Position numbers and translations under genes: made by a program. Below, in pieces: positions 2,631-22,381 of a stretch of DNA of 22,381 bases. The stretch covers positions 1 to 22,381 of IMG/VR virus record IMGVR_UViG_2585427768_000008; one strand, 5' to 3'. The notes under the pieces were generated by a model. That model did not search any database. It saw only the letters and a program-made list of their open reading frames with translations, and was not told where the DNA came from. How positions within the stretch are numbered: position 1 is the first letter of the stretch; every line of letters starts with the position of its first letter. Source of the stretch: a virus (Duplodnaviria; Heunggongvirae; Uroviricota; Caudoviricetes).

Positions 2631-5600
2631 TTAATCCACTCCCACTTTTTTGTTGTACTCGCGGTTAAACCGATCCACGGCAACCTTCATATCCCGCTCT
2701 ACCGATTTCACCATCGCCGCCTGCTGCGCCAGACTGAGAGAACTGTCGGCATAAATGGCATCGCGCTGTTTGCGCAAATCCTTCAGTCTCTTCCGGGTAT
2801 CCTGCATAAGCCCGTTCATCAACAATTTTCCGTTGTTCTCGTCAATGAACGCCGTTCTTTCTGCACCGGTCAGACTCTTCAGCTCTGCGTGATACTGCGC
2901 AACCTCTGTCATCCGGTCGTACATCTTCTGCTGGTCTGCATACGGCATCACCTCACCCGAAATTTTCCCCAGGAAGGGCACCTGCTGTTCCGGTATATCA
3001 ATACCATTCAGCGATTTCACCGCCGCATCCGTGGTTTTGGAAATGAAGCGCCCTGTCCCTCCGGAGATATAGTCAATCCAGAATTTCAGCGATTCCGGTG
3101 TGATATCCACCGCGCCGGGACGATACTGGCTGCCACCTGAGAACGCATTCAGCCAGAATGCAAACGCCTTGTACGCTTCTGGCGTTGAACGTCTTCCCAG
3201 CTGGCTGTCAGGTTTTGGTGTACCAAACGGCATGTTCTCCTGGTAAATCTGCGCCCCCATGAAGTTTTCGTTCATGGCAAGATTCGCAAACGGACGCAGA
3301 ATTGTCGGTGCTGCATTTTTCAGCAATGCCCCCGACAACGTTTCCGACGTCTCGCTGCCGATCGGGCTGAATGCCCCCAGGATACCGCCGACAACATTAC
3401 CGGCAGCACGTGAAGCAGTCAGGTCGCCCGCTGCCACACCTTCAGCTGTATGACCAAGCAGGAAGAACACGTTGTACCCGTAAGGCAGAGGAATACTCCA
3501 GTACTCACCGGCCTTGCCCCCGAACATCGATTTCATGATGACGAGGTTACGCTCTTTCACATGAGACGGTACTTTGTCGTACCAGTTACCCCCGTCATCA
3601 TCCTCCCCCGCCACACTGCGGTTAAGCGAGCCAAGCAGATAACCCGCTCCCACAGCTGCAAGCACGATTTTCTGCGGTACATTGAGATTCTTCCAGCGAA
3701 GGCGCTCCAGTAACGGCCCGTCGCCATTAAGATGTCCGAGCGTTCTCACCAGGTTTGCGGTCCCCTGAATGCTGGCGTTGGCAAACATGTACAGCGAGTT
3801 CATCAGCATCCCCTGCTCACCACGACGGTTAAAGTTCACCGTCATGTTTTTGGCAAGAGACGCCGCCTGCTGGCGTGACAAACCGGCATCACGGGCGTGT
3901 TTATAGGCAGAAAGACGCAGAGCGTTTTCAACCGCGCCGTTGGCATCCTCGACCAGGTTCAGGAACGAATGCCATGCACCGATACTCTGGCCTTTCCATC
4001 CGCCCTTCGCCAGCGACACAAGGCGATCCATTTCCTTCTGCTGGCCCTCAAGGTCACCCATGTTAAACCAGCCGGTTTTACCTCCGTCCTCAACAAACTC
4101 TTTCCACACTTTCTGCCACTGTGCGCCTTTGCCCGTGAGGGTTTTACCCCGCAGACTTGCGTATACGGCTGACATGGCGGAACGGCTGTCTTTCACCACA
4201 GCCAGCGCGGATAAGTTATCCAGCTCTTTCAGTTTACCGTCGCTCCTTCCCTGCTCAGCCTTCAGGTTCATCACCGCAGTCTGCACGTCACGGATGAAGT
4301 TACTGACCAGAAATTCCGGGTTATACGACGTGTTCACCGTTGCCAGGAAGCGGTTAACTTTCCCCAGCGTACGGATTACGGCGTTACTGGTTTCCGGCCC
4401 CATGTTCTTCATCGCACGCATCAGGCGCGGATCATGAAGTTTAATGTAGTAAGTTTTGCCGTCCTTTTTGGTGGTGAAGTAGCGATCCGCCATCATTGCC
4501 ATCGGCACAGGGCGCTCGACAACTTCGCGAATGGTTTCACCAGTTTCCTGGTCCTTGCGCTCTGCAATCACACGCATTGTATCCGGTCTGTCATCAGTGA
4601 ATCCCTGCCAGTAATCCTTGTCGGGATTATCCTGTACCAGTTTCAGGAAGGCGTTACCCACTTCATTTTTGCGATTGCGGATCAGCGATTCACTCAAATC
4701 CTGTATCGCCTGAGTGGAAGGAGACTGTGCGCGGGATGCACGCCCCATGGCCTGCTTACTTTCACGCCCGCCGATGGTGAATCCCTTGCCTGTACGTGGC
4801 TGTGACACCACACCGTCAACATCCTGCCCTTTCAGGGGGACGTAGTAACGGTAGGCTTTCTGCCAGGCATCCACCACGCCGCTCTCTTCCAGTCCTGCCT
4901 CACGGATAATCTCACGGCGACGGGCCAGCATATCGTCAATAATCCCTGCCAGACGGTCATACTGTGCCTGTTTGCCGCTGTTACGCACACGCTGCATGAT
5001 TTCCGCCGCTTCCGCGTTGGTCATCCCCGAACCGCCGTCCGGCATTTTCGGGTTGATTTTCGCAATATGCACGTTACGTTCCGGCGCGTGACGGGCGTAG
5101 AGGTACTCATCCAGATCGGCCTGCGCAATTTTGTAGTCCGCCAGCAATTTGGCCAGCGGCTGAACGTAGCGCTCCTTCATTACGTTCAGGTCGTTTTCCG
5201 CCTTCCCGTGGAAGAGTTCTTCAGCCATATAGGCGTTATTGCTGTCATCTATTTTTCCGCCAGTTTTACGGATATTCTCCTGCACCGCCTTCAGCACCTG
5301 GAATTTATCCTGCATCTGGCGAACAAAACGGGATGCAATTGTCTCTTCCGGCGTCAGACTGCTGGTGCGGGAGTAATACGGCCCCTTGCGAATATCTTCA
5401 GGATAGAGTATTTTATCAACAGAGCCGCGATAAGAATGTTCCCCTTTGGGCAATTGGAGCCCTCTGTGCAGAAGGTTATCGCGGCTTAATTTTTCTCTCC
5501 GGTACAACGTTAAACCGGTCATTTCCATACTCTTCAGTTTTTTCCCGTTTTCCGTACCGTAAACAGATGCCACCTTGTTGATTTCCAGGCGCGACCGGAC

Positions 5601-8600
5601 AGCCTTCATGTGTACCGCTGACACCACCGGATCACCATTTTTATCCACGGCATCAAGCAGCATCACAACCGCGTTTCTTTCTGTCGCGGAACGGTAAATT
5701 GCATCCGGATCGTGCATCAGTTCCGGTAGTCTCTCGATAACATCCATCGGCACCACATGTTTCACACCATTGGTGGCCTTACGCACAGTGTCGCGGGAGA
5801 TAACCAGCGGCAAATCTGGTGCGCCAAGGTGACGCAATACCGGCGGCGTACGCCCGATGTTTACCGTTAAATCCGTTGAGCGCAGAGACTTCATCATTCT
5901 GGCAAGGTCATCACGATAACGCTCGCCCTCACCTTCCGGCACTTTGAACGGATCAGGCTTACCGCTACGGGAGTACTGAGACGATGCGTCCGCGCCATCC
6001 TCACGCGGCGTGTAACCTTCCCGCACACGCTGGCCTAACGTGCGAATAGTTTCGCGAACAAGTCTGATATCGTTCAGTTCCGTCGGCTTCAGTAACCCCG
6101 TACGACGCAGTACCCCTTTGACCAGGGCAACAACACGCTCCCATGCCGCCACGAATTTAATCGGCTGCTTCTCTGCCATATGCGCCAGAAATTCACCCGC
6201 CTGCACTTCCGGTGATTCCTTACCATAAGACGCATCAACCTTACGCCAGGCTTCACGGATGGTGGCGTTATCACTGTCACGGGTTTTCAGCACGGTCTTA
6301 ATAATCGTCTGATATTCCGCTGGCGTGACTACATGCTCCATTGCATGGTGAATAATCTCGTGACGTAACTTCTCGCGAACGGTCCGCCCGTCAGGGATGT
6401 TATCCGCCACCAGGACAATTTCACGTTTATCCGGACGATAGAACGCGTGCACCTTGCCGTAACCGTCGAATGATTCCCCCGCCAGTGCTTCAGCCTCTTT
6501 CTGTGACTTCACCACGCGGACCTTCAGGTCACTGTCCTTAATGCCACTAATCACGCCACGGGCAACAGCTTCAACCTGCGGGACCGGACTGCCTTTGGCT
6601 TCCGCACTACGGTTAACATCCGAAATCAGATTGCCTTCAGGTGTGCGGGTCACGCCCTTACGGGAATAAAACGCAACTCCCTTGTCCGTCTCACGGGTTT
6701 TCAGTGTTCGGAACAAGTGATCGAATGCCTCACGAATACCGCCATCCAGTTCTGCATTCGTCGGATAAGCGTAGGTGTCCGGCTGTCCATGGTCATCCGC
6801 CTTACGGATATTGACCAGATAATCATTCTCCACGCCAGCCATACGCGCTTTATCCTGAACATAACGCTCAAAGGCTCGCGCCGCCATTTCAACATCCGTT
6901 GACCAGTACGGTTTTGAACGAACGCCATCCAGGCGTTCAGAACGACGCAACATGTCACTGCTGTTAATGGCTTTCATCACGCCTTTAAACGCGTCGTAAA
7001 CCTCCTGACGTACCGGATATTCCGCATCAACATACCTGCCGTCTTTAAATACGCGCCCGGCACGCTGTGCTTCCGTCATATAGTCGCCACCTGACGTGAT
7101 CTTCCCGTCAGTGGAAACATCATAACGACCAAAATAATTATCCAGTGAATGGAACCATTCGTGGGCCAGCGCCCCCGGTCCGTTACCTTTTGTCAGGTTG
7201 ATTGCCACCTCACCCGGCTCATAGTGTGCCGCCGCCTTACCCTTACCACGGGCACCAAAAGCAAGCCCAAGACGACCGTTCAGAGAAAGCGCTTTTGTCG
7301 GCACGTTCAGCACGTCAGCCAGGTCATGCAGCGAGTCATAAGCCCGGTTCAAATCAGCCTGACGACGCGGACTTTCCACATAATTACCAAACTGCACACC
7401 ACGAAAACCAAACGCATCACTGAACTGCTCCGGCGAAACATCCCCCTTGCGGCGTTCTGGTCCGGTACGATCGCGGTTGGTGGCGTTACGCTGCTCCTCA
7501 CGCGAGACTTCACGCAGCGCCTTCACCTGATTAACCAGCTCATCACGATGTGTGCGCACATAATCATGTGCATCACGGGCAGACTCAAAACCGCCCTTCA
7601 GTTTCTGCCTGTTTTTGCCATAACCGATAAAAATGTCGCCACTGGCCTTATGCCGGTACACGTCAAAGGTTATTCTGTCATCAGCAGAGGTTGCTGGCGT
7701 TTCCCTTTCTCTGGAGCCTTGTTCATCGAAATATGCTTTCGCCTTTTTCAGTAACTCATCCCGGCTTTCCGAGAAAAAGAGGTCGCGCCCCTTGCTATCA
7801 CGAAGCGAATACATCATTTGCGGCGGATCGTAACGTTTTCCCCCGACAAACGAATAAACACCGGACCTGACACGATAGCCGGATGCTTTATCAATCTGCA
7901 ATGCAGAAAGCGTACGGAGCAGTTTCCAGGTATCCGACATGCTCCGTAACCCCGGCTTACTGTCCATCATATCAGCCAGTTTCGCTGCCGGAATTTTCCC
8001 CTCCAGCATACCGGCAGTAGCTTCGCGACCGCTTTTAACAATGCTGATCCATTTCTGCATGTTACGGCTTGTTCTGGTGGGAATTTCACTGCGATACAAC
8101 GCCATCATTGCCAGCGTGTCACTATCCACACCTTCTTTTTCCAGACGGGCATAATCCGGCTTTGGAAACAGTTTGCTCAGTGGTTGTGTCGCGTACTCCC
8201 CATCCTCCAGCGTTTTACCCATAGCTTCAGCAAGCTGCGCATAACGGTGTTTTGCCGCGCCCTTAATCTCCTCGCCAAAGTCTTCAATTTTCGCACCACG
8301 CGCCTGCTGGTGAGTGCTCGGTTTATCTACCGGCACCGGCACCTCAGTATCCGGAACATCGGTTATGGTCTGGCGATTATCCCCGGTCTGTCTGCGTGCT
8401 TCTGCCTGCTGTGCCAGTTCCGGAAGGGAGTCACGAACCATACGAGGGAGTGATTCAGGCTGTGGCATATCAACCCCACGCTGACTTTCAGGTGCAGGAA
8501 GACCTTCACGCACTGGTGCTGTGGCGTTCTGCTCATCCGGTGACGGCAGACCACGACGAACTGTTTCGCCCTCCAGTATTTCCCCCTGGCGACCAGCGGC

Positions 8601-10484
8601 ATTTTCCGGTGCCTGCGCACGTCCTTTCTGGAAACTCTGGCCCTTCACCTCACCGGTTGTGGTAAAACGACCACCACGTCCGGCCTGATTTTCATCCGGC
8701 GTACGCGCTACTTCTCCTGGTAACGGATATCCCTGTCCGGGATGAATATCGCCGGGAGCGGGAAGGCGTGGACGCTCAGTTAACTCCTGTGCTGTCGGAC
8801 CGGCATCACCTTCAGCCATCTGGGAACGCACCAGTTCTTCCGCCGTCGGCGCGTTGCCACGAGCAAGACGGGCCTGCACTTCTGTATCATCCCCCGTAAA
8901 ACCACGGAATCGCGGGTCACGCATGAACGCGGGCTGTTCCATCGGATCAGCATCAGTAATACGCTCTCCGTCAGCCAGAGTGTTAATGGTCTCCGTTGCC
9001 ACATCTTCAGAGAACGCAGGATTATCCATTTCAACGGCATACTGATTCTCGCCTTTCTTCACTACGGACGGTTTCAGGCCGGTGGCGCTGGCATTGCGGA
9101 AAACGTCGCTCCCCAGAGCACTTTTTTCATCCGTGAAATAACGGTTGTCCGGACGCACCTTTTCAATGCGTTCTGCTGGTCTGGACGCACCACTCTCGTT
9201 AATTTCAATACGAACTTCATCCGGATCGCGGAACCGCACCGTCGGGTAAATACTCCCGTCGCCATCATCCGCATTTTCCGGCTGTGGCTGTGCCTCCGGT
9301 CTGGCCTCCCGCTGAGGGCGAAGCACATCACGTATTGCCTGTAACTGCTGCTCTTCAGTATCAGTACGCCCTTCCTTCTGGCTGAGTTTTCGGTATTCCT
9401 CAAGCAGTTCAGGGCGCGGCTTCGCCTTCAGCTCATCCATCACCGCCTGTCGCTTCGCCTGTTCATCCAGTTCATTCAACAGCTGGCTGGCGGCTTCCCG
9501 GCGATGAACGGCAGACGTGTCTCCCTCATGTGCCATATCCGCATCAGCATACTGTTCCAGAAGCTGCTCGCGATTCATCCCCTGCATAGATTCACGATGC
9601 TGTGCCACCGGATCAACCGGTTCGGGTTGCGGAGCCGATTCGTCCTGAGGAACGCTTTCAGCCTCACGCATGGCTGCTTCATCTGCCGCCTGACGTTTTC
9701 CACGATATCCGGCAGCCGCACCGAATGGTGCCCCCATTGCAGCACCAAGGGCTGCACCTTCGATCGTTGCGTCAGCCACGCCCTCCCACGGTGACACATC
9801 CATTCCGGCGGTCTCACGCAATGCCGTGTTTTCCTGATAGCGTGAATAGCCACCCTGCGCCGCATTAATCGTCCCCTGTTCCGTGGCATTTCTGACAATG
9901 CCGCTTTTAACGGTCTTCGCCGTGCCCCGCATCGCCAGATTAAGCAACTGAGCATCGCCCAGTTTTGCCGCCATGGCATTCACAGCCAGCAATTCAGGAT
10001 CGGTTGCCAGCTGCGCACGCACCTCATCGGCAACACGCTCTTTTGCCAGGTCCATTTTCTGGCGGTCAGTAAGCTGCGCGTGCTGCGGATCTGCATCAAT
10101 TGACAAAAAGGTCTGCTGAAATTTCGGTGACTTCGCCAGCTCAGAATAATCCGCGTTAAGAACAGCATCTGCCGCTGCCATTGCACTCCGCCCTTGCGCA
10201 CTGACAGTGGAATGGGTGATCAGGCCTGCCTGGAAAAAATCCGGCATTTTTTTATCGACAGCTTCGGCTGCCAGTGCTGTGGCTCTTTCCGGCTGCATCC
10301 CTGCCGCGATGTATTTTTTCTCCAGCCCGGCGGTCAGCACTTTTCGCAGAGTGACATCACCCAGCTTTTTAGTCACACCGCCTGCAACCATATCCGGTAC
10401 AAGCGCACCAATCAGGTTAACTCCACAAGCCTTCGCAACTTCAGGGATGCCGACACCTTTAATCGGCTCATCAAGATTTTGCAT
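2631..10484 (-). CDS. giant multidomain protein (about 2617 aa) with zincin-like HExxH motifs; function unknown, possibly polyvalent-protein-like
   Basis: Uninterrupted 7.9-kb ORF on the minus strand. Preferred start is ATG at 10484 (AAGGA 7 nt upstream); the track start at 10517 has no RBS. HEWFH encoded at 7149-7163 and RHEIIHHAMEH at about 6334-6363. No Walker A or methyltransferase motifs seen. GC content visibly higher than the neighbouring AT-rich operon. Confidence 0.9.
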   Translation of the reverse strand: MQNLDEPIKGVGIPEVAKACGVNLIGALVPDMVAGGVTKKLGDVTLRKVLTAGLEKKYIAAGMQPERATALAAEAVDKKMPDFFQAGLITHSTVSAQGRSAMAAADAVLNADYSELAKSPKFQQTFLSIDADPQHAQLTDRQKMDLAKERVADEVRAQLATDPELLAVNAMAAKLGDAQLLNLAMRGTAKTVKSGIVRNATEQGTINAAQGGYSRYQENTALRETAGMDVSPWEGVADATIEGAALGAAMGAPFGAAAGYRGKRQAADEAAMREAESVPQDESAPQPEPVDPVAQHRESMQGMNREQLLEQYADADMAHEGDTSAVHRREAASQLLNELDEQAKRQAVMDELKAKPRPELLEEYRKLSQKEGRTDTEEQQLQAIRDVLRPQREARPEAQPQPENADDGDGSIYPTVRFRDPDEVRIEINESGASRPAERIEKVRPDNRYFTDEKSALGSDVFRNASATGLKPSVVKKGENQYAVEMDNPAFSEDVATETINTLADGERITDADPMEQPAFMRDPRFRGFTGDDTEVQARLARGNAPTAEELVRSQMAEGDAGPTAQELTERPRLPAPGDIHPGQGYPLPGEVARTPDENQAGRGGRFTTTGEVKGQSFQKGRAQAPENAAGRQGEILEGETVRRGLPSPDEQNATAPVREGLPAPESQRGVDMPQPESLPRMVRDSLPELAQQAEARRQTGDNRQTITDVPDTEVPVPVDKPSTHQQARGAKIEDFGEEIKGAAKHRYAQLAEAMGKTLEDGEYATQPLSKLFPKPDYARLEKEGVDSDTLAMMALYRSEIPTRTSRNMQKWISIVKSGREATAGMLEGKIPAAKLADMMDSKPGLRSMSDTWKLLRTLSALQIDKASGYRVRSGVYSFVGGKRYDPPQMMYSLRDSKGRDLFFSESRDELLKKAKAYFDEQGSRERETPATSADDRITFDVYRHKASGDIFIGYGKNRQKLKGGFESARDAHDYVRTHRDELVNQVKALREVSREEQRNATNRDRTGPERRKGDVSPEQFSDAFGFRGVQFGNYVESPRRQADLNRAYDSLHDLADVLNVPTKALSLNGRLGLAFGARGKGKAAAHYEPGEVAINLTKGNGPGALAHEWFHSLDNYFGRYDVSTDGKITSGGDYMTEAQRAGRVFKDGRYVDAEYPVRQEVYDAFKGVMKAINSSDMLRRSERLDGVRSKPYWSTDVEMAARAFERYVQDKARMAGVENDYLVNIRKADDHGQPDTYAYPTNAELDGGIREAFDHLFRTLKTRETDKGVAFYSRKGVTRTPEGNLISDVNRSAEAKGSPVPQVEAVARGVISGIKDSDLKVRVVKSQKEAEALAGESFDGYGKVHAFYRPDKREIVLVADNIPDGRTVREKLRHEIIHHAMEHVVTPAEYQTIIKTVLKTRDSDNATIREAWRKVDASYGKESPEVQAGEFLAHMAEKQPIKFVAAWERVVALVKGVLRRTGLLKPTELNDIRLVRETIRTLGQRVREGYTPREDGADASSQYSRSGKPDPFKVPEGEGERYRDDLARMMKSLRSTDLTVNIGRTPPVLRHLGAPDLPLVISRDTVRKATNGVKHVVPMDVIERLPELMHDPDAIYRSATERNAVVMLLDAVDKNGDPVVSAVHMKAVRSRLEINKVASVYGTENGKKLKSMEMTGLTLYRREKLSRDNLLHRGLQLPKGEHSYRGSVDKILYPEDIRKGPYYSRTSSLTPEETIASRFVRQMQDKFQVLKAVQENIRKTGGKIDDSNNAYMAEELFHGKAENDLNVMKERYVQPLAKLLADYKIAQADLDEYLYARHAPERNVHIAKINPKMPDGGSGMTNAEAAEIMQRVRNSGKQAQYDRLAGIIDDMLARRREIIREAGLEESGVVDAWQKAYRYYVPLKGQDVDGVVSQPRTGKGFTIGGRESKQAMGRASRAQSPSTQAIQDLSESLIRNRKNEVGNAFLKLVQDNPDKDYWQGFTDDRPDTMRVIAERKDQETGETIREVVERPVPMAMMADRYFTTKKDGKTYYIKLHDPRLMRAMKNMGPETSNAVIRTLGKVNRFLATVNTSYNPEFLVSNFIRDVQTAVMNLKAEQGRSDGKLKELDNLSALAVVKDSRSAMSAVYASLRGKTLTGKGAQWQKVWKEFVEDGGKTGWFNMGDLEGQQKEMDRLVSLAKGGWKGQSIGAWHSFLNLVEDANGAVENALRLSAYKHARDAGLSRQQAASLAKNMTVNFNRRGEQGMLMNSLYMFANASIQGTANLVRTLGHLNGDGPLLERLRWKNLNVPQKIVLAAVGAGYLLGSLNRSVAGEDDDGGNWYDKVPSHVKERNLVIMKSMFGGKAGEYWSIPLPYGYNVFFLLGHTAEGVAAGDLTASRAAGNVVGGILGAFSPIGSETSETLSGALLKNAAPTILRPFANLAMNENFMGAQIYQENMPFGTPKPDSQLGRRSTPEAYKAFAFWLNAFSGGSQYRPGAVDITPESLKFWIDYISGGTGRFISKTTDAAVKSLNGIDIPEQQVPFLGKISGEVMPYADQQKMYDRMTEVAQYHAELKSLTGAERTAFIDENNGKLLMNGLMQDTRKRLKDLRKQRDAIYADSSLSLAQQAAMVKSVERDMKVAVDRFNREYNKKVGVD

Positions 10485-10562
10485 AGGGATATCCTTTTTC
10501 GTACTTTCAGTACGCATTATGATTGAACTGAAAGTTTTTGCAAGTGCTTTAGTATCGTACTC
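10485..10562. promoter_or_regulatory. divergent promoter/operator switch region between giant gene and cI-like repressor
   Basis: Minus-strand promoter TTGCAA (10538-10543), 16-nt spacer, CATAAT (complement of 10516-10521). Perfect 15-bp palindrome CGTACTTTCAGTACG (10500-10514) just downstream of the -10; inverted partial copy ACTGAAAGT (10527-10535). A third CGTAC-N5-GTTCA element (10556-10570) overlaps the cI start. cI has no Shine-Dalgarno; TAGTAT (10550-10555) lies 7 nt before its ATG, suggesting a leaderless transcript as for lambda pRM. Confidence 0.5.
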
Positions 10563-11270
10563 ATGGTTCAGAATGAAAAAGTGCGCAAAGAATTCGCCCA
10601 GCGGCTAGCGCAAGCCTGTAAAGAAGCTGGTCTTGATGAACATGGTAGGGGAATGGCTATAGCCCGTGCCCTTTCTCTTTCGTCCAAAGGCGTTAGCAAA
10701 TGGTTTAATGCTGAGTCTTTACCGCGTCAGGAAAAAATGAATGCGCTTGCGAAATTTCTAAACGTTGATGTTGTTTGGCTTCAGCACGGCACTTCGTTAA
10801 ATGGAGCGAATGATGAAGATACTCTTTCATTTGTTGGCAAATTAAAAAAAGGGTTAGTGCGCGTGGTTGGTGAGGCAATTCTTGGTGTTGATGGTGCCAT
10901 CGAGATGACCGAAGAGCGCGATGGGTGGCTCAAAATTTATAGCGATGATCCAGATGCCTTTGGCCTTCGTGTGAAAGGAGACAGCATGTGGCCCAGAATA
11001 AAATCAGGAGAATATGTACTCATTGAGCCTAACACCAAAGTATTCCCGGGTGATGAGGTGTTTGTCAGAACCGTTGAAGGACACAACATGATTAAGGTTC
11101 TTGGCTATGACAGAGATGGAGAATACCAATTTACAAGCATTAACCAGGATCACAGGCCTATAACGTTGCCTTATCATCAAGTAGCAAAGGTGGAGTATGT
11201 AGCTGGTATTCTGAAGCAATCTCGCCATCTGGATGACATCGAGGCAAGGGAGTGGCTGAAAAGTTCGTGA
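10563..11270 (+). CDS. cI: CI-like prophage repressor (N-terminal HTH, C-terminal S24 LexA-like peptidase)
   Basis: 235-aa ORF. N-terminal HTH-like segment (GMAIARALSLSSKGVSKWFN) and C-terminal GDSMWP serine motif with a downstream conserved lysine (MIKVLG), as in LexA/CI autocleaving repressors. Position and orientation match cI relative to the pL operon. Confidence 0.88.
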   Translation: MVQNEKVRKEFAQRLAQACKEAGLDEHGRGMAIARALSLSSKGVSKWFNAESLPRQEKMNALAKFLNVDVVWLQHGTSLNGANDEDTLSFVGKLKKGLVRVVGEAILGVDGAIEMTEERDGWLKIYSDDPDAFGLRVKGDSMWPRIKSGEYVLIEPNTKVFPGDEVFVRTVEGHNMIKVLGYDRDGEYQFTSINQDHRPITLPYHQVAKVEYVAGILKQSRHLDDIEAREWLKSS

Positions 11271-11330
11271 CTTCATCGTCACATAGCTGGTAACCAGTGG
11301 CCAGAAGAAACGTTTGGGTGAGGAGGATAG

Positions 11331-11672
11331 ATGGCGTTCACTGACCTTGAATATCAAGCGGTCAAAAAAGAAGTTCACCAATTCATTGAAAGCATAAGGC
11401 CGCCTGAACATATCCGCAATGAACTGGATATTGTTTATAGCATCAATGACCAAACGATAGATATCGGCGAACAGCGCCCCGTGTGGCAGGGCAACCCAGG
11501 TGAAACAAACATCCTGCCATCAGCAAGAATCAAGTACATACGTTCTCTGGATAGATGGAAAATCTATTGGATGCGGAAGGATATGAAATGGCATCAGTAC
11601 AGTACTGAACTTTCGCTGACTGATGCGCTTGAGCTTGTGCGTGCTGACCCGGATTGCTGCTTCTTCGGATGA
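11331..11672 (+). CDS. hypothetical protein, first gene downstream of cI
   Basis: 113-aa ORF with strong RBS GAGGAGG before the ATG; same strand as cI and no terminator between them. No recognisable motifs. Confidence 0.6.
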   Translation: MAFTDLEYQAVKKEVHQFIESIRPPEHIRNELDIVYSINDQTIDIGEQRPVWQGNPGETNILPSARIKYIRSLDRWKIYWMRKDMKWHQYSTELSLTDALELVRADPDCCFFG

Positions 11673-11739
11673 GTGAAGAGACGTTTGGATGATGGATGGT
11701 CGCAGAGATGCGGCCTGATTCTAAAATAGGATATAAAAA

Positions 11740-12201
11740 ATGAGAATACTAGGTGTTAGAGCGGCGCCCAAAGTTACATCTTTTGTTGTATATTGCACTA
11801 ATGAGTCTGCACTCAAATGTGTTGATGTTATTAAAATACCTTCGACCTTAGACACACCAGAAAAATTAAAGTATGTGAGAAATAACATCCTCGACATTCT
11901 TAATTTATATAATGTTGAATTAGCTGCCATACGCGTTACTGAATCAAACTCTGATAATCTTAGCATTGACCGCCTTTATATAGAAGCTGTTATTCAAGAA
12001 GCATTTTCAAGCAGTGATGTAAGAAAATATTACACTATTAGAAAATCTGGCATGAAATCATCATTGAACCTAACAGAGATCGAGTATAAAGAAATATTGA
12101 AGTCACACCGCAATATAAATGGAATCGATAATTCTGGTTTTACAACTGAAACAAATGAAGCTGTTTTGGCTGCTCTATCTGCGGAGGTAAGGGGATGCTA
12201 A
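11740..12201 (+). CDS. hypothetical protein, upstream partner of Ser/Thr kinase
   Basis: 153-aa ORF in a markedly AT-rich segment; AGGA upstream of the ATG; 3' end overlaps the kinase start by 7 nt. No recognisable motifs. Confidence 0.6.
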   Translation: MRILGVRAAPKVTSFVVYCTNESALKCVDVIKIPSTLDTPEKLKYVRNNILDILNLYNVELAAIRVTESNSDNLSIDRLYIEAVIQEAFSSSDVRKYYTIRKSGMKSSLNLTEIEYKEILKSHRNINGIDNSGFTTETNEAVLAALSAEVRGC

Positions 12202-13241
12202 CTCCATACAAAAGAGCTGATGTAGAATTCGAATGGATTAGTGATCTAGAAGAACAGGGTTGTTTTTCAAAAGTATATCTGGCTCATGACAGACACCTAG
12301 CTCATGACTTGGTGATTAAAGAAATAGAAAAAAAAGAAAACACTAACCACGACGACTACTTTAATGAAGCAAGGCTTCTCTATAAACATGCACATCCAAA
12401 TATTGTGCAAGTTCAGTATGCTGCTCAATGTGAGAGCAATATCTATATAGCCATGCCATTTTATCATAATGGTTCGCTAAACCAATTAATGAAAAAAAAT
12501 AATCTTACAAGCAGGGAGATAATACGGTATTCCATTCAATTTTTAAGTGGACTTTATCATATACACTCAAAAGGTCTTATGCATTTTGATATAAAACCTA
12601 ATAACATTATGATATCAAACAGAAATGAGGCCATGCTATCTGACTTTGGATTATCTCAGTTAGTCAATGAGGAATCGAGAGCTGCGCCTGAGTTTGGATA
12701 TCATTTTCATGTGCCACCGGAATATTTTTCTTTATCAACAAATGATTATAATTTCACATATGACATATATCAGGCAGGATTAACCATATATAGAATGTGT
12801 GTTGGACATGATAATTTTGAAAGAGAAAGATCTGCATTTAGCACGATTGAACAACTCAGAGAGTCGATAATTAATGGCTGCTATCCATTAAAAGAGTATC
12901 CTCCCCATATACATAAAAAATTAATAACAATAGTGAACAAATGCATTCATGTAGATCCAAATGAAAGATATCAATCCGTACTAGATGTACTAAACGATCT
13001 CTCAGCTATAAGTGATGGCGTTCTTGACTGGCGTCTACAGATGACGAAACCAACTAACGGCACATGCGAATGGCAAAAAAAGTCTGGGGACGCTATACTG
13101 TCTATAGTTTTTGACGCAGAAAATTCGTCTACTACTGGTTTTCGTTTATACGATGATGGGCGGAAAAGGCGTGCTACGAACTTAACAATATCCTCAGGAT
13201 GTACCCCTACAAAACTGTATAGGTTATTAAAGGATAACTGA
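12195..13241 (+). CDS. eukaryotic-like (Hanks-type) Ser/Thr protein kinase
   Basis: 348-aa ORF with GGAGG 7 nt upstream. Kinase subdomain motifs in order: glycine-rich-like loop EQGCFSKVY, VIK lysine, catalytic loop HFDIKPNN (about 12583-12606), DFG (12642-12650), PPE (APE-like), DIYQAG. AT-rich. Confidence 0.85.
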   Translation: MLTPYKRADVEFEWISDLEEQGCFSKVYLAHDRHLAHDLVIKEIEKKENTNHDDYFNEARLLYKHAHPNIVQVQYAAQCESNIYIAMPFYHNGSLNQLMKKNNLTSREIIRYSIQFLSGLYHIHSKGLMHFDIKPNNIMISNRNEAMLSDFGLSQLVNEESRAAPEFGYHFHVPPEYFSLSTNDYNFTYDIYQAGLTIYRMCVGHDNFERERSAFSTIEQLRESIINGCYPLKEYPPHIHKKLITIVNKCIHVDPNERYQSVLDVLNDLSAISDGVLDWRLQMTKPTNGTCEWQKKSGDAILSIVFDAENSSTTGFRLYDDGRKRRATNLTISSGCTPTKLYRLLKDN

Positions 13242-13243
13242 TC

Positions 13244-13408
13244 ATGAAAAAGCGCGAGGAAGTAAGCAAGCTGCCTCGCAGACGTGATGCAGCATTAGCG
13301 GTTCCCTACAAAAAAGATGAGTTCATAAGCCCTTCTGATGACAAAAAATTTTCAAAGGCGAAAAGTTTTACATCTACATCTCTAAAAGATAAATACTTTA
13401 AAATCTAG
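13244..13408 (+). CDS. small basic protein (54 aa), translationally coupled to kinase
   Basis: ATG at 13244, 2 nt after the kinase stop, with AAGGA upstream; stop TAG 13406-13408 directly precedes the terminator. Not in the supplied ORF track (below its length cutoff); read by hand. Confidence 0.35.
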   Translation: MKKREEVSKLPRRRDAALAVPYKKDEFISPSDDKKFSKAKSFTSTSLKDKYFKI

Positions 13409-13434
13409 CCCGGCCTCAGCGCCGGGTTTTCTTT
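13409..13434 (+). terminator. rho-independent terminator ending the cI/kinase operon (tIMM-like)
   Basis: CCCGGC (13409-13414), 6-nt loop, GCCGGG (13421-13426), followed by TTTTCTTT. Confidence 0.7.
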
Positions 13435-13605
13435 GCCTCACGATCCCCCACCTAAAAAAACATAACTCATTGTATTTATTGATGTAACTCGCTAAACCAT
13501 GCAGTTCTGATCCCTGCCGCATAACCTTCATCAGCCACATTTTCAAAAATAAATTTCCTTATATATCAGAATCATACTTCGTAGAGTTAATAAATCACCA
13601 AAATT

Positions 13606-13650
13606 CGTACCAATAGTTCTTGATAATGTCGAACTATTGGTTCACTATTA
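13606..13650 (+). promoter_or_regulatory. candidate pL-like promoter with inverted-repeat operator
   Basis: 11-bp inverted repeat ACCAATAGTTC (13609-13619) / GAACTATTGGT (13631-13641) with 11-bp spacer containing TTGATA (13620-13625, -35-like); weak -10-like CACTAT at 13643-13648. CGTAC-N5-GTTCT at 13606-13620 resembles elements in the cI switch region. Confidence 0.4.
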
Positions 13651-13717
13651 TCGTCATCAGCAGGACGCATTACTCACCAGGGCGGTGAATATACAACGAT
13701 TCGAATATGAATCTACG

Positions 13718-13732
13718 GCGCTGACAAAGCGC
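13718..13732 (+). promoter_or_regulatory. nutL-like boxB RNA hairpin (P22 type)
   Basis: GCGCT GACAA AGCGC: 5-bp stem with GACAA pentaloop, the boxB form I recall for phage P22. Lies between the pL-like promoter and the N-like gene. No convincing boxA found upstream. Confidence 0.6.
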
Positions 13733-13742
13733 AATAACCAAA

Positions 13743-13885
13743 GTGAACTTTGGGGTGTGGTGAAGGGTTCATGGACGGGAATATGTCGCACGTAAAGCGG
13801 CGAGGCCTGTGGGACTATTGCCGAATTGAAGTAGGCCGAAACAGGTCGAAATGGGTCTCCCACCTACCACACCACCAAAGTTCAT
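13743..13885 (+). other. long-range helix in the N-like gene leader (possible RNase III-type processing or translational control structure)
   Basis: TGAACTTTGG (13744-13753) and GTGTGGT (13755-13761) pair with ACCACAC (13867-13873) and CCAAAGTTCA (13876-13885), about 17 bp with one bulge, enclosing about 105 nt. The helix ends 1 nt before the AGGAGG Shine-Dalgarno (13887-13892). Confidence 0.4.
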
Positions 13886-13897
13886 CAGGAGGTCTAT

Positions 13898-14998
13898 ATG
13901 ACACGCAGAACTCAGTTCAAAGGCAATTCACGTTCTCGTCGTCGTGAGCGTTTAAAGGCAAAGGCATTAGCTAACTGCGTACTGGCCCGCGAAGAAGCAA
14001 TAAGTTCAGAAGTATTACACCGCCCTACTCTAAGCAGAGCGCAGATTCAGGCTAAAGGTACTCACGAAACGCCTGAGCGCATAGAAGACGCTAAGCCAAT
14101 TAAGTTCATGGCACAGGACGTGATCTGGCAACAGAAAGAATACAGACGCAATCTGGAGCGAGCAGCCATTGTGTACGCGAATGAGTTTGGACATAAGCAA
14201 CCAGAAACTGGTGTATGTCTTCCAAACGTAGCCATTTACGCGGCAGGCTACCGGAAATCAAAACAACTGACGGCGAGGGGATTGATGACCACGCCTTCAG
14301 TTTTGCCGCAAAAGTTATGGCGTCCGCTTGCAGAGATTAAAAACTTCGTTGAAAAAATGCCTGATGGAGTTCGCCTTACGGAAGTTACTAAAAAAGTTAA
14401 GACATTTGCCGAACTGTCAGGAAAGGAGAGAAACCAGCTCATAGATTTTATCGATAAACGGGAAAGCATCATTGTATTTAAGGTCAGAAAAGAAGGTTCT
14501 GGTAACGGAGTAACCTTTTTCCGCCACAAAAAATATGGATATCCCAAACGGGAAGGAAACGTCACAATCACTAAGGACCTTCAATCAAAATTATGTACCA
14601 GATGCGGGCAGACAAAATCAGTCAATGATTTTTATTCAGATGCCAGCAAGCGTGACGGGAGAGCCATTTATTGCAAGAAGTGCGAATCTGCAATGAAACG
14701 CTCACGCAGAAAATGCAACAAATTAATTCTGCAACAACAGGAACCTGAAATGAATAACCTCAAAGCAGTTTCACCTTCACCAGAAATACTCAGAAAACAG
14801 GCTGAAGAATTGCTGAAAGCCGCCGAAATTGCGGAGAAAAAACGCCAGGAAGATGATGCATTCAACAAAAAACTTGCGCCCTTAAAACTTGAAATCCTTC
14901 AGGCCGCCGGAAAAATGCAGCTTAAACTGGACGAATTCATCGACTGTATGGATGAAATGAATAAAGCAGTTCAGAAGCTTAAAGAGCTGACCGCCTGA
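13898..14998 (+). CDS. N-like transcription antiterminator with arginine-rich N-terminus, extended by a CxxC...CxxC zinc-ribbon and coiled-coil C-terminal region
   Basis: 366-aa ORF, AGGAGG 5 nt upstream. N-terminus KGNSRSRRRERLKAKALAN resembles the arginine-rich motif of the P22 N protein (recalled as GNAKTRRHERRRKLAIER) and pairs with the P22-type boxB upstream. CTRCGQ...CKKCES motif near residue 250. Much longer than typical N proteins. Confidence 0.6.
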   Translation: MTRRTQFKGNSRSRRRERLKAKALANCVLAREEAISSEVLHRPTLSRAQIQAKGTHETPERIEDAKPIKFMAQDVIWQQKEYRRNLERAAIVYANEFGHKQPETGVCLPNVAIYAAGYRKSKQLTARGLMTTPSVLPQKLWRPLAEIKNFVEKMPDGVRLTEVTKKVKTFAELSGKERNQLIDFIDKRESIIVFKVRKEGSGNGVTFFRHKKYGYPKREGNVTITKDLQSKLCTRCGQTKSVNDFYSDASKRDGRAIYCKKCESAMKRSRRKCNKLILQQQEPEMNNLKAVSPSPEILRKQAEELLKAAEIAEKKRQEDDAFNKKLAPLKLEILQAAGKMQLKLDEFIDCMDEMNKAVQKLKELTA

Positions 14999-15029
14999 TA
15001 TTAATAAATTGCAACTACCGGAGTTAACT

Positions 15030-15389
15030 ATGAACGAAACAGAACTGAAGCACATTATCGCCCTGCTTCTGGAAGATGCCAGACAGGTTTATCGACTTAG
15101 CCCAAATTCCGCAACGCTGACACGCATCCAGATGGCAGAAAAAGCACTGAAACAGGATAATGAAAACAGCGCATCCGAAGTTGATGCTAATGGTGAAAAT
15201 GAAGTAATAGAAATAAACAGCAATATCAGCGATAGTTGCGTCGCTTACAGCCACCAAATAATTCGTGTAAGTGCAAGAATAATGGAAGTGATGGCAAGTG
15301 AGCTTGAAAAGAACAACATCAAGCCCACTGATTGTTGTTTAAGAACCGTAATGAACGTTATTTATTACTCGATGTTCCGAAGTCGCTAA
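15030..15389 (+). CDS. hypothetical protein
   Basis: ATG at 15030 with GGAG 6 nt upstream (the track start at 15009 is TTG without an RBS). 119 aa, no recognisable motifs. Confidence 0.5.
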   Translation: MNETELKHIIALLLEDARQVYRLSPNSATLTRIQMAEKALKQDNENSASEVDANGENEVIEINSNISDSCVAYSHQIIRVSARIMEVMASELEKNNIKPTDCCLRTVMNVIYYSMFRSR

Positions 15390-15567
15390 CAGCGTCGAGT
15401 TTTTCATCAAAAAATGATTCAAATGCATCGTAAAATACGGCAATAGCACCGCCCTTATCTACCGCGGCAGGAACTGCCTTTTGAGGTATATCTTTCTCCC
15501 TGAATTGTGTGTTGTAGGTATCGACAGCCAGCCGCATCAGAAACATCACTTTTTCTTCTTGTGTCAT
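15358..15567 (-). CDS. hypothetical small protein (69 aa), antisense to the surrounding operon
   Basis: Minus-strand ATG at 15567 preceded by a strong AAGGAGAG Shine-Dalgarno; 3' end overlaps the convergent + gene by 32 nt. Confidence 0.45.
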   Translation of the reverse strand: MTQEEKVMFLMRLAVDTYNTQFREKDIPQKAVPAAVDKGGAIAVFYDAFESFFDEKLDAVSDFGTSSNK

Positions 15568-15806
15568 AAATTCACTCTCCTTACGGGGTTTGTAGTTGAG
15601 GAGTTCTCCACGGGTGAGGTGGAGATCGTGCGCCGGACACGGGTAAGTTCCGGCACTCTCAGTTTACTGAACAGACATTACCCTGAAAGCCAGGGTACAA
15701 CACGAAAGTGCACGGCGAAGACTCTTTCCCATTGAAGGCTTGTCGTTAGATTTCTTCGACCGTGCGCTTCCGGTTGTGAATAACAACATTGCTGTGTGTA
15801 GCCCTT

Positions 15807-15848
15807 GGCGGACATCGGTTTGCCGATTGCTGATGTCCGCCCTTTTTA
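15807..15848 (+). terminator. rho-independent terminator (tL-like)
   Basis: GGCGGACATC (15807-15816), about 15-nt loop, GATGTCCGCC (15832-15841), followed by CTTTTT. Confidence 0.65.
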
Positions 15849-16023
15849 AAGTGAATTTTGTGATGCGGTGAATGCGGCTATGCGCACGCGGAACAGTTAA
15901 ACCGACAGGATGTCACGGAAAGTCATCGTCCCCTGACCCGGCGTTAGTTGTTAACTGGTTAACGTCACCTGGAGGTACCAGGCACCGCATCAACAAAGTT
16001 CATTTGTGAAAATGGAGATAATT

Positions 16024-16245
16024 ATGATTGTTCATCACTTCGGAACTGATGAAATACCACGTCAGTGCGTGACGCCTGGCGATTATGTTCTTCATGAAGG
16101 TCGGACATATATCGCTTCAGCAAACAATATTGAAAAGAGAAAACTCTATATTCGTAACTTCACAACAAAAACATGCATTACCGACTGCATGATTAAAGTT
16201 TTCATCGGGCGCGATGGCTTACCCGTAAAAGCAGCGTCGTTGTGA
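16024..16245 (+). CDS. hypothetical small protein
   Basis: ATG at 16024 with GGAG 6 nt upstream (the track start at 16006 is GTG without an RBS). 73 aa. Confidence 0.5.
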
Positions 16246-16328
16246 CGAGTAATAAAATACCCCTTCCATATCTGTAACAGACAAGCCGAAATAAAACCGC
16301 ATTAATTATCAATCACGGAAAAATCAAA

Positions 16329-16715: not shown

Positions 16716-16720
16716 AATAA

Positions 16721-16750
16721 AAATCCGGCAGCGCAGGCTACCGGATTTCT
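16721..16750. terminator. palindromic hairpin, possible weak terminator
   Basis: AAATCCGG (16721-16728), 12-nt loop, CCGGATTT (16741-16748), then CT; lies right after the stop of the 128-aa ORF. Confidence 0.3.
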
Positions 16751-16822
16751 CCCTGCGTCACCGTATTCGGAGAAATCAGACAAAGGGCCGCTAATTCTAA
16801 TCCAGCCAGAGGTTTAAATACA

Positions 16823-18895
16823 ATGAGCGCTGATAAACAGACTTTTGCACTACACTGCGAAGCAAAAAACGATAAAGTCAGAAAACGCCTTGGCATCAAA
16901 GGCGGTTTTTTCTGGACCGAGGCCAGAAAACTTTCTGTCGCAGTTTCCCGCTGCATTGCAGCCATGGACGATGCAGGCTACGACGAGGATGATTTCAAAA
17001 AACCCGTTCGCGTAAATTTCCCCGTCGTGAATGACCTTCCACCGGAAGGCGTGTTTGATACTGAATTCTGCAACCGCTATGAAAAAGGCGGGGAAGATGG
17101 CATCACCATGATGGCTATATCCTTCAATGACAACATCAACGGTGAAGATGCCACAACTGCTGGCGATGACAACGATGACCCGGACGGAACTATTCCGGAT
17201 GATGTGGAGAAAAGCGAATCCCCGGACAGCGACGATGACTGTTCTGAGTGTGAAATTCCCGTCGCCACTCTGAGCCTTACTCATCGCTTCCTTCACCTCT
17301 TCTTCTTCAGCAAGGATGAAGATGGAAAATACCGGCATCACGCCACACCAGAACAACGCAATAACGTGATCCGTATGGAGATGGACACAGAGGACAGTTA
17401 CCTTCAGAGCCTGCTTACTGCTGTGCGCGCCGCACATCATGAACTGGATAAACTGACGAACTATCACCTTAGTCGCCTGGCTGAATCTGTAGGGAAAGCA
17501 TTCCCCCACTCTGCAAATCATCGCATCAGCCCGGCTGAATTCGACAAGTTCATTTCCACCTGGATGAAAACTGACTACCTTGATCAGGGCCTGCTGACAA
17601 AAGAATGGCAGAACGGAAATTATGTTTCAGGCATTACCCGTACGCCTTCCGGTGCTAACGCTGGCGGCGGAAATCTTACCGATCGTGGTGAAGGATTCAA
17701 ACATGATAAGACATCACTCGCACGAGATGTAGCCACCGGCGTTCTGGCCCGTTCAATGGATGTGGATATTTATAACCTGCACCCAGCACACGCAAAACGC
17801 GTTGAAGAAATCGTGTCAGAGAATAAGCCGCCCTTTTCTGTTTTTCGCGACAAATTTATCGCCATGCCCGGTGGGCTGGATTATTCCCGCGCCATTGTGG
17901 TGGCTTCCGTGAAAGAAGCACCAATCGGCATTGAGGCCATCCCGGCACGCGTGACTGAATATCTCAACAAAGTGTTGACCGAAACCGATCACGCTAACCC
18001 GGATCCGGAAATCGTGGAAATTGCCTGCGGTCGCTCATCAGCACCGATGCCGCAGCGCGGAACAGCAGAAGGAAAACATGGCGATGAAGAAAAGCAACAA
18101 GCATCGGACACAATGGCTAATGAACAGGCAGCGCCTGAATCAGTGGAAGAAATTCCAGTTAAACATAATGAGGACACGCAATCACTGGAAAATGTCTCAT
18201 CTGTAGAAACGAAATACCAGGAACTGAGGGAGGAACTCAATAAAGCCAGGGAAAACATCCCCCCAAAAAATCCAGTCGATGCCGACAAATTACTGGCTGC
18301 CTCGCGTGGAGAATTCGTTGAAGGCATCAGTAACCCTGCTGATCCGAAGTGGGTGAAGGGGATCCAGACTCGCGACACTGAGGACCAGAATCAGTCCAAA
18401 GTGGAACAAATTGCCCCAGAAGCGGGACAAAACAGCCCGGATACGCAACAAAACGGGTCAGAAGAGCAACAGCCAGGGCCAGTAGCGCAACCGGAGCTGG
18501 AAAAAAACTGCCGCGTCTGTGGTCAGACTGGCGGGGGGAACTGCCCCGACTGTAGTGCGGTAATGGGCGATAGCACTTACACAGAAACTTTTGGAGAAAA
18601 TGACGCCGCTGATGGAGAAGACTCAGCACAAACTGAGGAGAAGATCATTCAGGAAAACTCTGTTGATGCCGCTCAGGAGGGCGAAACCGTTGTTCAGAAC
18701 GAGCCAGGCAGTGATACGTCCGGCGATGACGCCAATTCTGAGCCAGTAACTCTCGACTGGAAAAGACAGCTCGTGATTGCCGCCGTCTATGGTTTGTGCG
18801 CCAACCCCGCATGTATAGCCACAGCGCCAGCAATCCCTGATATCGCCATCATGATTGCCAACAGGCTTGAAAATTTCGGAGGTGATAAATCATGA
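16823..18895 (+). CDS. large acidic hypothetical protein (690 aa) with zinc-ribbon motif, translationally coupled to gam
   Basis: Long ORF whose stop overlaps the gam start (ATGA at 18892-18895). Strongly acidic D/E-rich tracts (e.g. [30 protein letters not shown]), CRVCGQ...CPDC motif, hydrophobic C-terminal tail. Confidence 0.8.
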
Positions 18896-19188: not shown

Positions 19189-19193
19189 AACTG

Positions 19194-20990: not shown

Positions 20991-21362
20991 ATGGATTCAC
21001 ACAGTATCACCCTCAAAGAGGCCTGTAAGTTTCTCAAGATATCAAGGCCAACAGCTGTTAACTGGATACGAACGGGCCGACTACAGGCAACCCGAAAAAA
21101 TTCTTCCGGTAAAAGATCACCTTATCTCACAACCCGGCAAGCCTGCATTGCAGCACTTCATTCACCGCTGCATACTGTCCAGGTGAGCGCGGGTGATGGC
21201 ATAACAGAGGAAAGAAAATGTCACTCTTCCGCAGAGGTGAAATATGGTACGCCTCGTACTCGCTCCCGGGCGGGAAGCGAATTAAGGAGTCTCTTGGCAC
21301 AAAGGACAAGCGGCAAGCTCAGGAGTTGCACGACAAGCGAAAAGCAGAACTCTGGCGAGTAG
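20991..21362 (+). CDS. xis: excisionase (P22 Xis-like, excisionase-family HTH)
   Basis: Segment [32 protein letters not shown] has the excisionase-family HTH pattern and sits directly upstream of int. Start chosen at ATG 20991 (track ORF opens at 20898); the 3' end overlaps int by about 145 nt in a different frame, so the exact boundaries are uncertain. Confidence 0.55.
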
Positions 21363-22381
21363 ACAGACTGGGGGATATGCCAGATGTCACTTTCGAAGAA
21401 GCCTGCCTGAGATGGCTTGAGGAAAAAGCCGACAAGAAATCCATCGATTCCGATAAATCCAGAATCGCATTCTGGATTGAGCATTTCGAGGGAATAAGGA
21501 TTAAGGATATATCGGAGGCAATGATCTACTCAGTTATCAGCAAAGCGTATAACCGAAAAACAAAGGAGAGATGGAAGTTGCAGGTGGAGGCTGCATTAAG
21601 AAAAGGGAAAGAACCACCAGCCTATATACCTAAATCGGTGAGCACGCAAACAAAAGCAACACACCTGGCAATGATCAAGGCTATTCTGCGCGCCGCAGAG
21701 CGAGACTGGAAATGGCTTGAAAAAGCACCTGTAATCAAAATCCCTGCCGTAAAAAACAAACGCGTGAGATGGCTGGAAAAAGAAGAAGCCAGGAGACTCA
21801 TTGATGCATGTTCTGATCCCCTGAAATCTGTAGTTAAATTTGCACTGGCAACTGGCCTGAGGAGATCAAACATTATTAATCTGGAGTGGCAACAAATCGA
21901 TATGCAGCGACGTGTTGCCTGGGTAAACCCTGAAGACAGTAAGTCAAACCGCGCTATTGGGGTCGCACTGAATGACACTGCCTGCAAGGTGTTGCGTGAT
22001 CAAATAGGCAAACATCACCGCTGGGTGTTTGTTTATACCACTGCTGCCAGAAGGCCTGACGGGACAATGACACCAAGCATCAGAAAGATGCGCCTGGACT
22101 ATAACACATCGTGGTTAACAGCATGTCGTCGGGCAGGAATTGAAAATTTCCGTTTTCATGACCTCCGCCATACCTGGGCCAGTTGGTTAATTCAGTCAGG
22201 TGTACCACTGTCAGTACTTCAGGAAATGGGCGGCTGGGAGTCTATCGAAATGGTGCGTAGGTACGCACACCTTGCACCTAATCATTTGACAGAGCACGCG
22301 AGGAAAATTGACGACATATTGGGTGACGATGTCCCAAATTTGTCCCACCCTGAGGTTTTTGAGGATGCAAAGAAAGCATAA
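21218..22381 (+). CDS. int: tyrosine integrase, P22 Int-like
   Basis: 387-aa protein, GAGGAAAG RBS. N-terminus [48 protein letters not shown] and C-terminal [44 protein letters not shown] (catalytic R...HxxR...Y box) closely match my recollection of P22 integrase. Stop codon is the last three bases of the window. Confidence 0.95.

Follow-up and report, generated by a model that had tools for sequence, protein, structure and literature searches.

Two predicted zincin-type metallopeptidase domains in the giant polyvalent protein of Shiga toxin phages

Little is known so far about the biology of phages of the 933W/phi24B type, the carriers that spread the Shiga toxin (Stx) genes. A 22,381-nucleotide stretch of viral DNA (IMG/VR record IMGVR_UViG_2585427768_000008, positions 1 to 22,381; referred to here as the window) encodes, in a giant open reading frame (ORF), a version of the largest protein of these phages, and this protein carries two HExxH motifs. 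Each motif is the evolutionarily conserved signature of the active site in a zinc-protease-like domain, and the two domains are of different kinds. We estimate at about 0.8 the probability that both domains (zincin domains 1 and 2) are metallopeptidases of the zincin type, and likewise that the motifs bind the metal and form the catalytic sites in two zincin-fold domains which look unrelated and adjoin each other in the middle of the protein.

Both motifs had been pointed out in a preliminary description of the window. The first, GNGPGALAHEWFHSLDNYFG, is present with HEWFH at residues 1119-1123 (nucleotides 7163-7149), exactly as described. The second, LRHEIIHHAMEH, occupies residues 1384-1395 (nucleotides 6368-6333, given earlier as about 6334-6363), with HEIIH at nucleotides 6362-6348, and the two are separated by 267 residues, close to the earlier figure of about 265. 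A pattern as short as HExxH might be expected to turn up by accident in a protein of 2628 residues, but the histidine and glutamate content predicts 0.04 occurrences against the 2 observed. The pair is far beyond chance because both motifs are conserved across distant homologues, in which they are invariant, and each is placed on the helix where a zincin-like core would have it. Chance origin is thus refuted by the conservation data, and we regard its probability as negligible.

Zincin domain 1, which surrounds the first motif, is of the CLCA_X type. The NCBIfam model CLCA_X (NF041907) matches residues 1017-1272 over positions 3-245 of its 250 (E-value 4.7e-45, 154 bits). A search with residues 1036-1300 returned 415 homologues at E<=1e-3, many of which are proteins of about 335 residues made up of LPD5, the motif-1 region and LPD1. 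In an alignment of 87 homologues with identities down to about 38%, the residues H1119, E1120, W1121, H1123, E1210 and R1214 are invariant, and conservation is 90% or more at H1098 and D1126. The preliminary description had proposed a glutamate of gluzincin-like spacing about 27 residues after the motif. That residue is E1149, 26 residues past H1123, and it falls in an insert of variable length and poor conservation; the invariant glutamate is E1210, 87 residues past H1123, which belongs to an E-x-x-A-R-x-F-E motif within the Pfam domain LPD1.

The AlphaFold2 (AF2) model of domain 1 has a mean predicted local distance difference test (pLDDT) of 90.1 and a predicted template modelling score (pTM) of 0.89. 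Its elements follow the order N-terminal helix, three strands, HExxH helix, an insert of a hairpin and two helices, and the E1210 helix. The HExxH is placed on the predicted model helix 82-99 (residues 1117-1134) and E1210, after the insert of about 70 residues, on model helix 173-191. From this order of elements it follows that what Pfam names LPD1 corresponds to the C-terminal half of the zincin domain of CLCA_X type. A helix and a three-stranded sheet precede the HExxH helix in the core, which bears a likeness to solved zincins: zinc metalloproteases account for 36 of the 50 best Foldseek matches in the PDB, among them collagenases H and G, matrix metalloproteases (MMPs), an M4 enzyme, an M61 enzyme, adamalysins, astacin and Wss1. 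The best of these is collagenase H (E-value 5e-3, probability 0.77, template modelling (TM) score about 0.3), and none reaches E<=1e-3.

The second motif lies in a widespread peptidase domain, zincin domain 2, that is covered by no Pfam or NCBIfam model. A word-indexed homologue search with this domain returned close fragments only, and an exhaustive HMMER search with residues 1305-1510 against 1.84 billion representatives was needed. It identified 370 representatives, counted at 50% identity, at E<=1e-3 and 91 at E<=1e-10, mostly proteins of 1.5-6 thousand residues. Over 144 aligned sequences the positions of H1386 (99%), E1387 (100%), the second histidine (100%) and E1442 (100%) are nearly or fully conserved, followed by Y1431 (94%), E1449 (92%) and W1424 (85%). 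The family signature is LRHE-x-x-x-H-[HY]-G-L, and 137 of the 144 representatives show HExxxH only. In the clade of Stx phages, which includes the giant protein and has 6 members among the 144, the residue before the second histidine has been lost, and because of this loss HEIIHH may be read as HExxH or as HExxxH. E1442 follows H1390 by 52 residues, a spacing similar to that in lethal factor and the Pro-Pro endopeptidases (PPEP).

The AF2 model of domain 2 (pLDDT 83.6, pTM 0.80) shows a helix, strands, the HExxH helix and later the E1442 helix, with HExx(x)H and the distal glutamate on model helices 73-92 and 132-145. Its likeness to solved zincin folds is seen in Foldseek, where lethal factor (E-value 0.03, probability 0.82), MATCAP, jannalysin and selecase are the best matches. 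The values listed for its fold matches are 8.3 for the Certhrax N-domain, 7.9 for the lethal-factor N-domain, 7.1 for TTHA0227, 7.0 for M32 carboxypeptidases and for PPEP-2/3, 6.5 for Spartan and for catalytic lethal factor, 6.4 for MATCAP, 6.3 for jannalysin, 6.0 for ArdC, 5.7 for PprI/IrrE and 5.6 for Wss1. The modelled fold appears closest to anthrax lethal factor and the Pro-Pro endopeptidases. The zincin fold of domain 2 is thus well supported, and its membership of a named peptidase family is not. SprT/Wss1 and ImmA/IrrE had been suggested earlier as families for comparison, and no sequence-profile match to the models of these families was obtained. Around both motifs, in agreement with the earlier expectation of a zincin fold, the core of N-terminal helix, three strands, HExxH helix and downstream glutamate helix is predicted with good confidence. 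When the two domains were aligned with hhalign, strand 2, strand 3 and the HExxH were superposed weakly (E-value 0.005, probability 6.8%), and no specific kinship beyond the zincin core is claimed.

Several observations weigh against the assignment of both domains to the zincin metallopeptidases. No Pfam model covers either catalytic core: at E<=10 neither the whole protein nor any of four sub-fragments matched a zincin family at motif 1, motif 2 gave Peptidase_M76 alone, at E 0.06, and a scan of all 30 members of the domain-2 alignment likewise gave no zincin family beyond the weak Peptidase_M76. The polyvalent metallopeptidase (MPTase) model of Pfam, which we take to be PF18818, was not among the Pfam matches of the giant protein and its sub-fragments. 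Searches of the PDB sequences with both domains, by phmmer and by profile, gave no meaningful match to any solved structure. With both domains every Foldseek E-value exceeded 1e-3 and the TM-scores were just 0.2-0.35, the matches being overwhelmingly zinc metalloproteases. The CLCA_X score of domain 1 is below the NCBI cut-off of 260 bits, a threshold adjusted to stand-alone proteins about 250 residues long; since the match falls short of the cut-off and yet extends over almost the whole profile with a highly significant E-value, domain 1 is best regarded as a homologous domain, and not an equivalog, of the stand-alone CLCA_X proteins. E1210 and D1126 are both candidates for the third zinc ligand of domain 1. 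We infer the peptidase activity, metal content and substrates of both domain families from sequence and predicted structure.

Two other readings accept the folds and differ on what they do. The zincin folds could be purely structural and serve encapsidation, oligomerisation or docking, in the manner of the inactive N-domains of lethal factor, edema factor and Certhrax or of the region of N4 vRNAP that contains its MPTase and is needed for packaging. Inactive zincin domains, however, lose the residues of HExxH and the glutamate, whereas here the two histidines, the glutamate between them and the distal glutamate are 99-100% conserved over widely diverged sets of 87 and 144 sequences, an argument that metal binding or catalysis has been kept; a purely structural role is therefore considered quite unlikely. 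The HExxH could also serve a chemistry other than proteolysis, as in a YbeY-like metallo-ribonuclease (metallo-RNase), an oxygenase of the HExxH type or another hydrolase. Fold matches of such a kind do occur but rank below many true peptidases, the YbeY motif is HxHxxxH and not HExxH with a distal glutamate, and the pattern H-E-x-x(x)-H...E is the signature of gluzincin peptidases, so that this alternative is highly improbable.

The giant protein matches PHROG 616 (phrog_616) from end to end with 5753 bits, and 186 phage records, of Stx-converting and related short-tailed phages (Traversvirus, 933W/phi24B type), share the DNA of the window at 80-99% identity. Residues 12-2628 align with residues 166-2783 of gp35 of phage Stx2-86 (2783 residues) at 96% amino acid identity, and gp35 is encoded by the final gene of the late operon. 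By sequence the giant ORF is the orthologue (codons 187-2783) of Stx2-86 gp35, Sp5 ORF80 (ECs1242) and phi24B gp47. Sp5 ORF80 (2793 residues) is needed for plaque formation and lysogenisation, that is for infectious particles, and Sp5 without it has heads of normal shape with DNA packaging intact (PMC5155283). The product phi24B gp47 (2811 residues) is abundant in purified virions by proteomics and unseen in the cryo-electron microscopy map, and its authors propose it as an encapsidated ejection protein of this podovirus (bioRxiv 10.64898/2026.04.10.717836). Neither paper locates the HExxH domains: the former reports just a weak AAA+ COG match (PMC5155283) and the latter assigns a 'metallopeptidase' to the MuF-C region of gp47 (bioRxiv 10.64898/2026.04.10.717836).

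Apart from the two zincin domains the giant protein contains the domains LPD5, LPD1, MuF_C and LPD38, all of which were defined when the polyvalent proteins of phages and conjugative elements were surveyed (Iyer et al. 2017, PMC5512222). As set out in the text of that survey, LPD38 is a C-terminal module restricted to phage-type polyvalent proteins and MuF-C is an RNase-like PBECR domain (PMC5512222); the 'metallopeptidase' label on MuF-C is thereby corrected. On the strength of these four domains the giant protein counts as polyvalent as Iyer et al. 2017 use the term: it is large and multidomain, with unrelated modules (LPD domains and MPTases among them) distributed over 2628 residues. The preliminary description, which had considered the motifs as zincin-like elements of a giant phage polyvalent protein, is supported in this by the four Pfam domains, the predicted zincin cores and the fold searches, and the virion location of phi24B gp47 and the essentiality of Sp5 ORF80 are in keeping with its view that such proteins travel with the DNA. 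It had also seen no P-loop, helicase or methyltransferase motif, and regular expressions for Walker A, DEAD/H and S-adenosylmethionine (SAM) methyltransferase motifs likewise found none in the giant protein, nor does it have a Pfam domain of such a kind. The N-terminal stretch of about 700 residues (residues about 40-740, window 8300-10400) is rich in Ala, Glu, Gln and Pro, is without a recognised domain and matches only the Stx-phage-specific PHROGs 26030 and 20690. A Kyte-Doolittle scan of the C-terminal half found no strongly hydrophobic segment, and no claim of a membrane channel is therefore made.

The proposed ejection of gp47 raises the possibility that the peptidase domains cut peptidoglycan cross-links so that the ejected protein builds a conduit through the periplasm, which is the role suggested for the gp47 'metallopeptidase' in the phi24B preprint. 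It is in keeping with this that phi24B is a podovirus with gp47 as its proposed ejection protein (bioRxiv 10.64898/2026.04.10.717836), and peptidoglycan-directed peptidases are noted in some polyvalent proteins in the survey text (PMC5512222). The Pfam scan, moreover, shows no lysozyme or transglycosylase domain in the giant protein, so that a wall-breaching activity is left unaccounted for. The 'metallopeptidase' of the preprint, however, sits on the RNase-like MuF-C, and its proposal is therefore independent of the zincin domains. The nearest folds of the two domains are protein endopeptidases (lethal factor, PPEP, collagenase, MMP, Spartan and ArdC) and not wall peptidases of the M15, M23 or M74 types; in addition domain 2 occurs in giants of conjugative plasmids and domain 1 stands alone among small non-structural genes. 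Cleavage of peptidoglycan by these domains is on balance very unlikely.

The occurrence of the two domains in other proteins bears on their possible roles. Domain 2 was found in about 106 Vibrio phages, and also inside giants annotated as 'zeta toxin family' on conjugative or mobilizable plasmids of Pseudomonas, Xanthomonas and Burkholderia; it is therefore a peptidase module common to phage-type and plasmid-type giants. Its neighbours in other giants include helicase, inorganic pyrophosphatase (InPase), LPD3, LPD39 and MuF-C/LPD38 modules. Domain 1 lies immediately upstream of it in 27 of the 122 large domain-2 proteins, with a median gap of 40 residues. Stand-alone proteins of about 335 residues, composed of LPD5 and the CLCA_X zincin/LPD1, are encoded in other phages (loci L002 8001-9011 and L004 8001-9002). 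On the metagenomic phage contigs concerned (about 60-68 kb), their genes belong to extended series of small genes without annotation, oriented divergently from the terminase/portal cluster; we read these series as early-gene clusters.

Following Iyer et al., the giant protein would be made late and packaged in the capsid, and would enter the cell by ejection together with the DNA or before it. Domain 2 could then act as a 'hub' peptidase which releases the modules by cleaving the linkers between the domains of the polyprotein, either in cis or in trans, and LPD5 with domain 1 could act in trans, at an early stage of infection, on a protein of the host (or phage). The processing role is suggested for domain 2 because it recurs with many partners in phage and plasmid giants, and the trans role for LPD5 with domain 1 because this unit exists alone among putative early genes, where there is no polyprotein. 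This division of roles is tentative, and we would give it somewhat less than even odds. It is drawn from domain co-occurrence and gene context, and two reports count against it: the account of virion proteomics of gp47 is silent on cleavage (bioRxiv 10.64898/2026.04.10.717836), and N4 vRNAP, which the survey counts among the polyvalent proteins with an MPTase, is packaged without being cleaved (PMC5512222). A fuller form of the proposal, in which the two intact zinc-protease centres, beyond any structural role, make the giant protein essential for the infectivity of Stx phages, domain 2 divides the ejected polyprotein into individual effectors and LPD5 with CLCA_X destroys a particular host protein, such as a defence or envelope factor, within the first minutes of infection, is doubtful.

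The coordinates of the features are collected below.

Table. Features of the giant protein and of the surrounding window; residues are those of the giant ORF and nucleotides those of the window.
Feature	Residues	Nucleotides	Strand	Remarks
Giant ORF	2628 in all	2631..10517	-	
cro-derived 5' end	1-31	10419..10517	-	annotated Cro start is M12
LPD5 domain	892-1035	7413..7844	-	Pfam PF18799, E 7.6e-44; directly N-terminal to zincin domain 1
Zincin domain 1	1017-1275	6693..7469	-	CLCA_X type; NF041907, AF2 model, Foldseek, conservation
H1098 (AAAHYEP)	1098	7224..7226	-	strand 2; at least 90% conserved
Motif 1, HEWFHSLD		7140..7163	-	H1119, E1120, H1123, D1126
E1210-MAA-R1214	1210-1214	6876..6890	-	helix after insert; candidate third zinc ligand E1210
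LPD1 (Pfam)	1196-1275	6693-6932	-	Pfam scan; C-terminal part of zincin domain 1
Zincin domain 2	1305-1510	5988..6605	-	ordered core about 1312-1450
Motif 2, HEIIHH		6345..6362	-	H1386, E1387, H1390, H1391
E1442-FLAHMA-E1449	1442-1449	6171..6194	-	candidate third zinc ligand E1442
MuF_C domain	1585-1674	5496..5765	-	Pfam PF18819, E 1.3e-17; PBECR RNase-like, no peptidase
LPD38 domain	2311-2516	2970..3587	-	Pfam PF18857, E 2.1e-47; C-terminal module
cI		10563..11270		divergent from the giant ORF
stk		12195..13241		Ser/Thr kinase
690-aa protein		16823..18895		RefSeq relatives annotated RecE-family exonuclease
int		21218..22381		

The giant ORF of the window is an in-frame fusion of the start of cro with the giant gene. 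The junction, at 10418/10419, joins cro to codon 187 of the giant gene with 1 nucleotide of microhomology; the first 31 codons of the ORF and the oR1-3/PR region upstream of them (10419-10562), like the divergent cI, derive from a lambdoid immunity region. The giant gene has lost its codons 1-186, and the whole stretch between cro and the tail genes, late genes included, is absent. The 1-nucleotide microhomology and the lambda-like gene order fit a real deletion rather than an artefact of assembly or of the window, but the junction was not found among 5426 complete E. coli genomes. The copy in the window is thus probably a remnant in a deleted prophage, placed under PR/cI control, which its own prophage cannot package because the genes from cro to the tail are missing. 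As a speculation, the fusion, an effector polyprotein of 2597 codons under cI/PR control, could be a domesticated SOS-inducible function.

The right half of the window (10418-22381), which is contiguous and 98.8% identical with a prophage of E. coli ES5, contains oR, cI, stk, bet, exo, an AlpA-like gene and int. The left half is similar to 933W and Stx2-86, and from this combination of halves the element is taken to be mosaic or defective. Positions 1-2630 hold early-type genes, ead/Ea22-like and DUF551-like, on the plus strand and facing the 3' end of the giant gene. About 380 nucleotides separate these early-type genes from the giant gene, and Stx2-86 has at this place a block of 4.6 kb with antB, a methyltransferase gene and int. 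The layout of positions 1-2630 resembles the lambda 'b-region' arrangement at a prophage end.

The largest gene of the 933W/phi24B-type phages is essential, as exemplified by Sp5 ORF80, and its product is present in the virion, as exemplified by phi24B gp47; the published annotations of this giant gene hold no correctly placed catalytic domain. In the current analysis both centres are placed and defined at the level of residues in the protein of an Stx phage, LPD1 is assigned to the CLCA_X zincin domain along with the correction for MuF-C, and a family-wide HExxxH signature is described for domain 2, from which the Stx clade has naturally returned to HExxH by the loss of one residue. The two centres give precise targets for mutation, H1119/E1120/H1123/E1210 and H1386/E1387/H1390/E1442 in the numbering of the window.

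The polyvalent-type MPTase that has been characterised structurally is ArdC (R388/pSa), a protein of conjugative plasmids with a single-stranded DNA-binding ArdC-N domain. Similarity at the level of sequence between its C-terminal metalloprotease and domain 1 or domain 2 is absent. Anthrax lethal factor, with the ATLF-like family (M34), and PPEP-2/3 share just 6-13% sequence identity with domain 2. Membership of domain 2 in the M34/ATLF or PPEP families was considered and rejected, as there is no PDB-profile or Pfam match and the helices after the core differ; the relation is a resemblance of fold and not one of family.

Lenart et al. (2013, PMC3650047) predicted CLCA_X to be a zincin family, carried by phages and plasmids and akin to the CLCA protease domain, which cleaves itself. 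Domain 1 shares with it the signature of HExxH followed by a conserved Asp, here HEWFHSLD, and the distribution in phages and plasmids, often inside very long proteins that are otherwise without known domains; homologues of domain 1 occur in phage contigs and Stx phages. It differs in that the Asp follows the second His by 3 residues (HExxHxxD) against HExxHxxxD in PMC3650047, and in that domain 1 is embedded in a protein of 2.6 thousand residues and is preceded by LPD5. No biochemical assay of any CLCA_X member was found in the literature.

According to the survey, no hub domain is more frequent in polyvalent proteins than the zincin MPTases, and autoprocessing has been proposed for them (PMC5512222). 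More than one MPTase in a polyvalent protein, interspersed with other domains, had already been described there (PMC5512222). One phage-type clade is characterised in the text by a His where strand 2 ends and by an Asp that follows HExxH at a distance of three residues, and another by HExxxH (PMC5512222). To judge from these descriptions, domain 1 fits the former clade through H1098 and D1126, and domain 2 (residues about 1310-1460), with its family, probably belongs to the latter, with the difference that in the Stx-phage clade a deletion of one residue has returned HExxxH to HExxH. Compared with Sp5 ORF80 and phi24B gp47, the copy in the window has the start of cro in place of its initial 186 codons. 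Zincin hubs (2017) and CLCA_X (2013) were predicted earlier, and because both families had thus been foreseen for the giants of phages and plasmids, the two domains located here constitute a useful annotation of the Stx-phage protein and no new kind of system.

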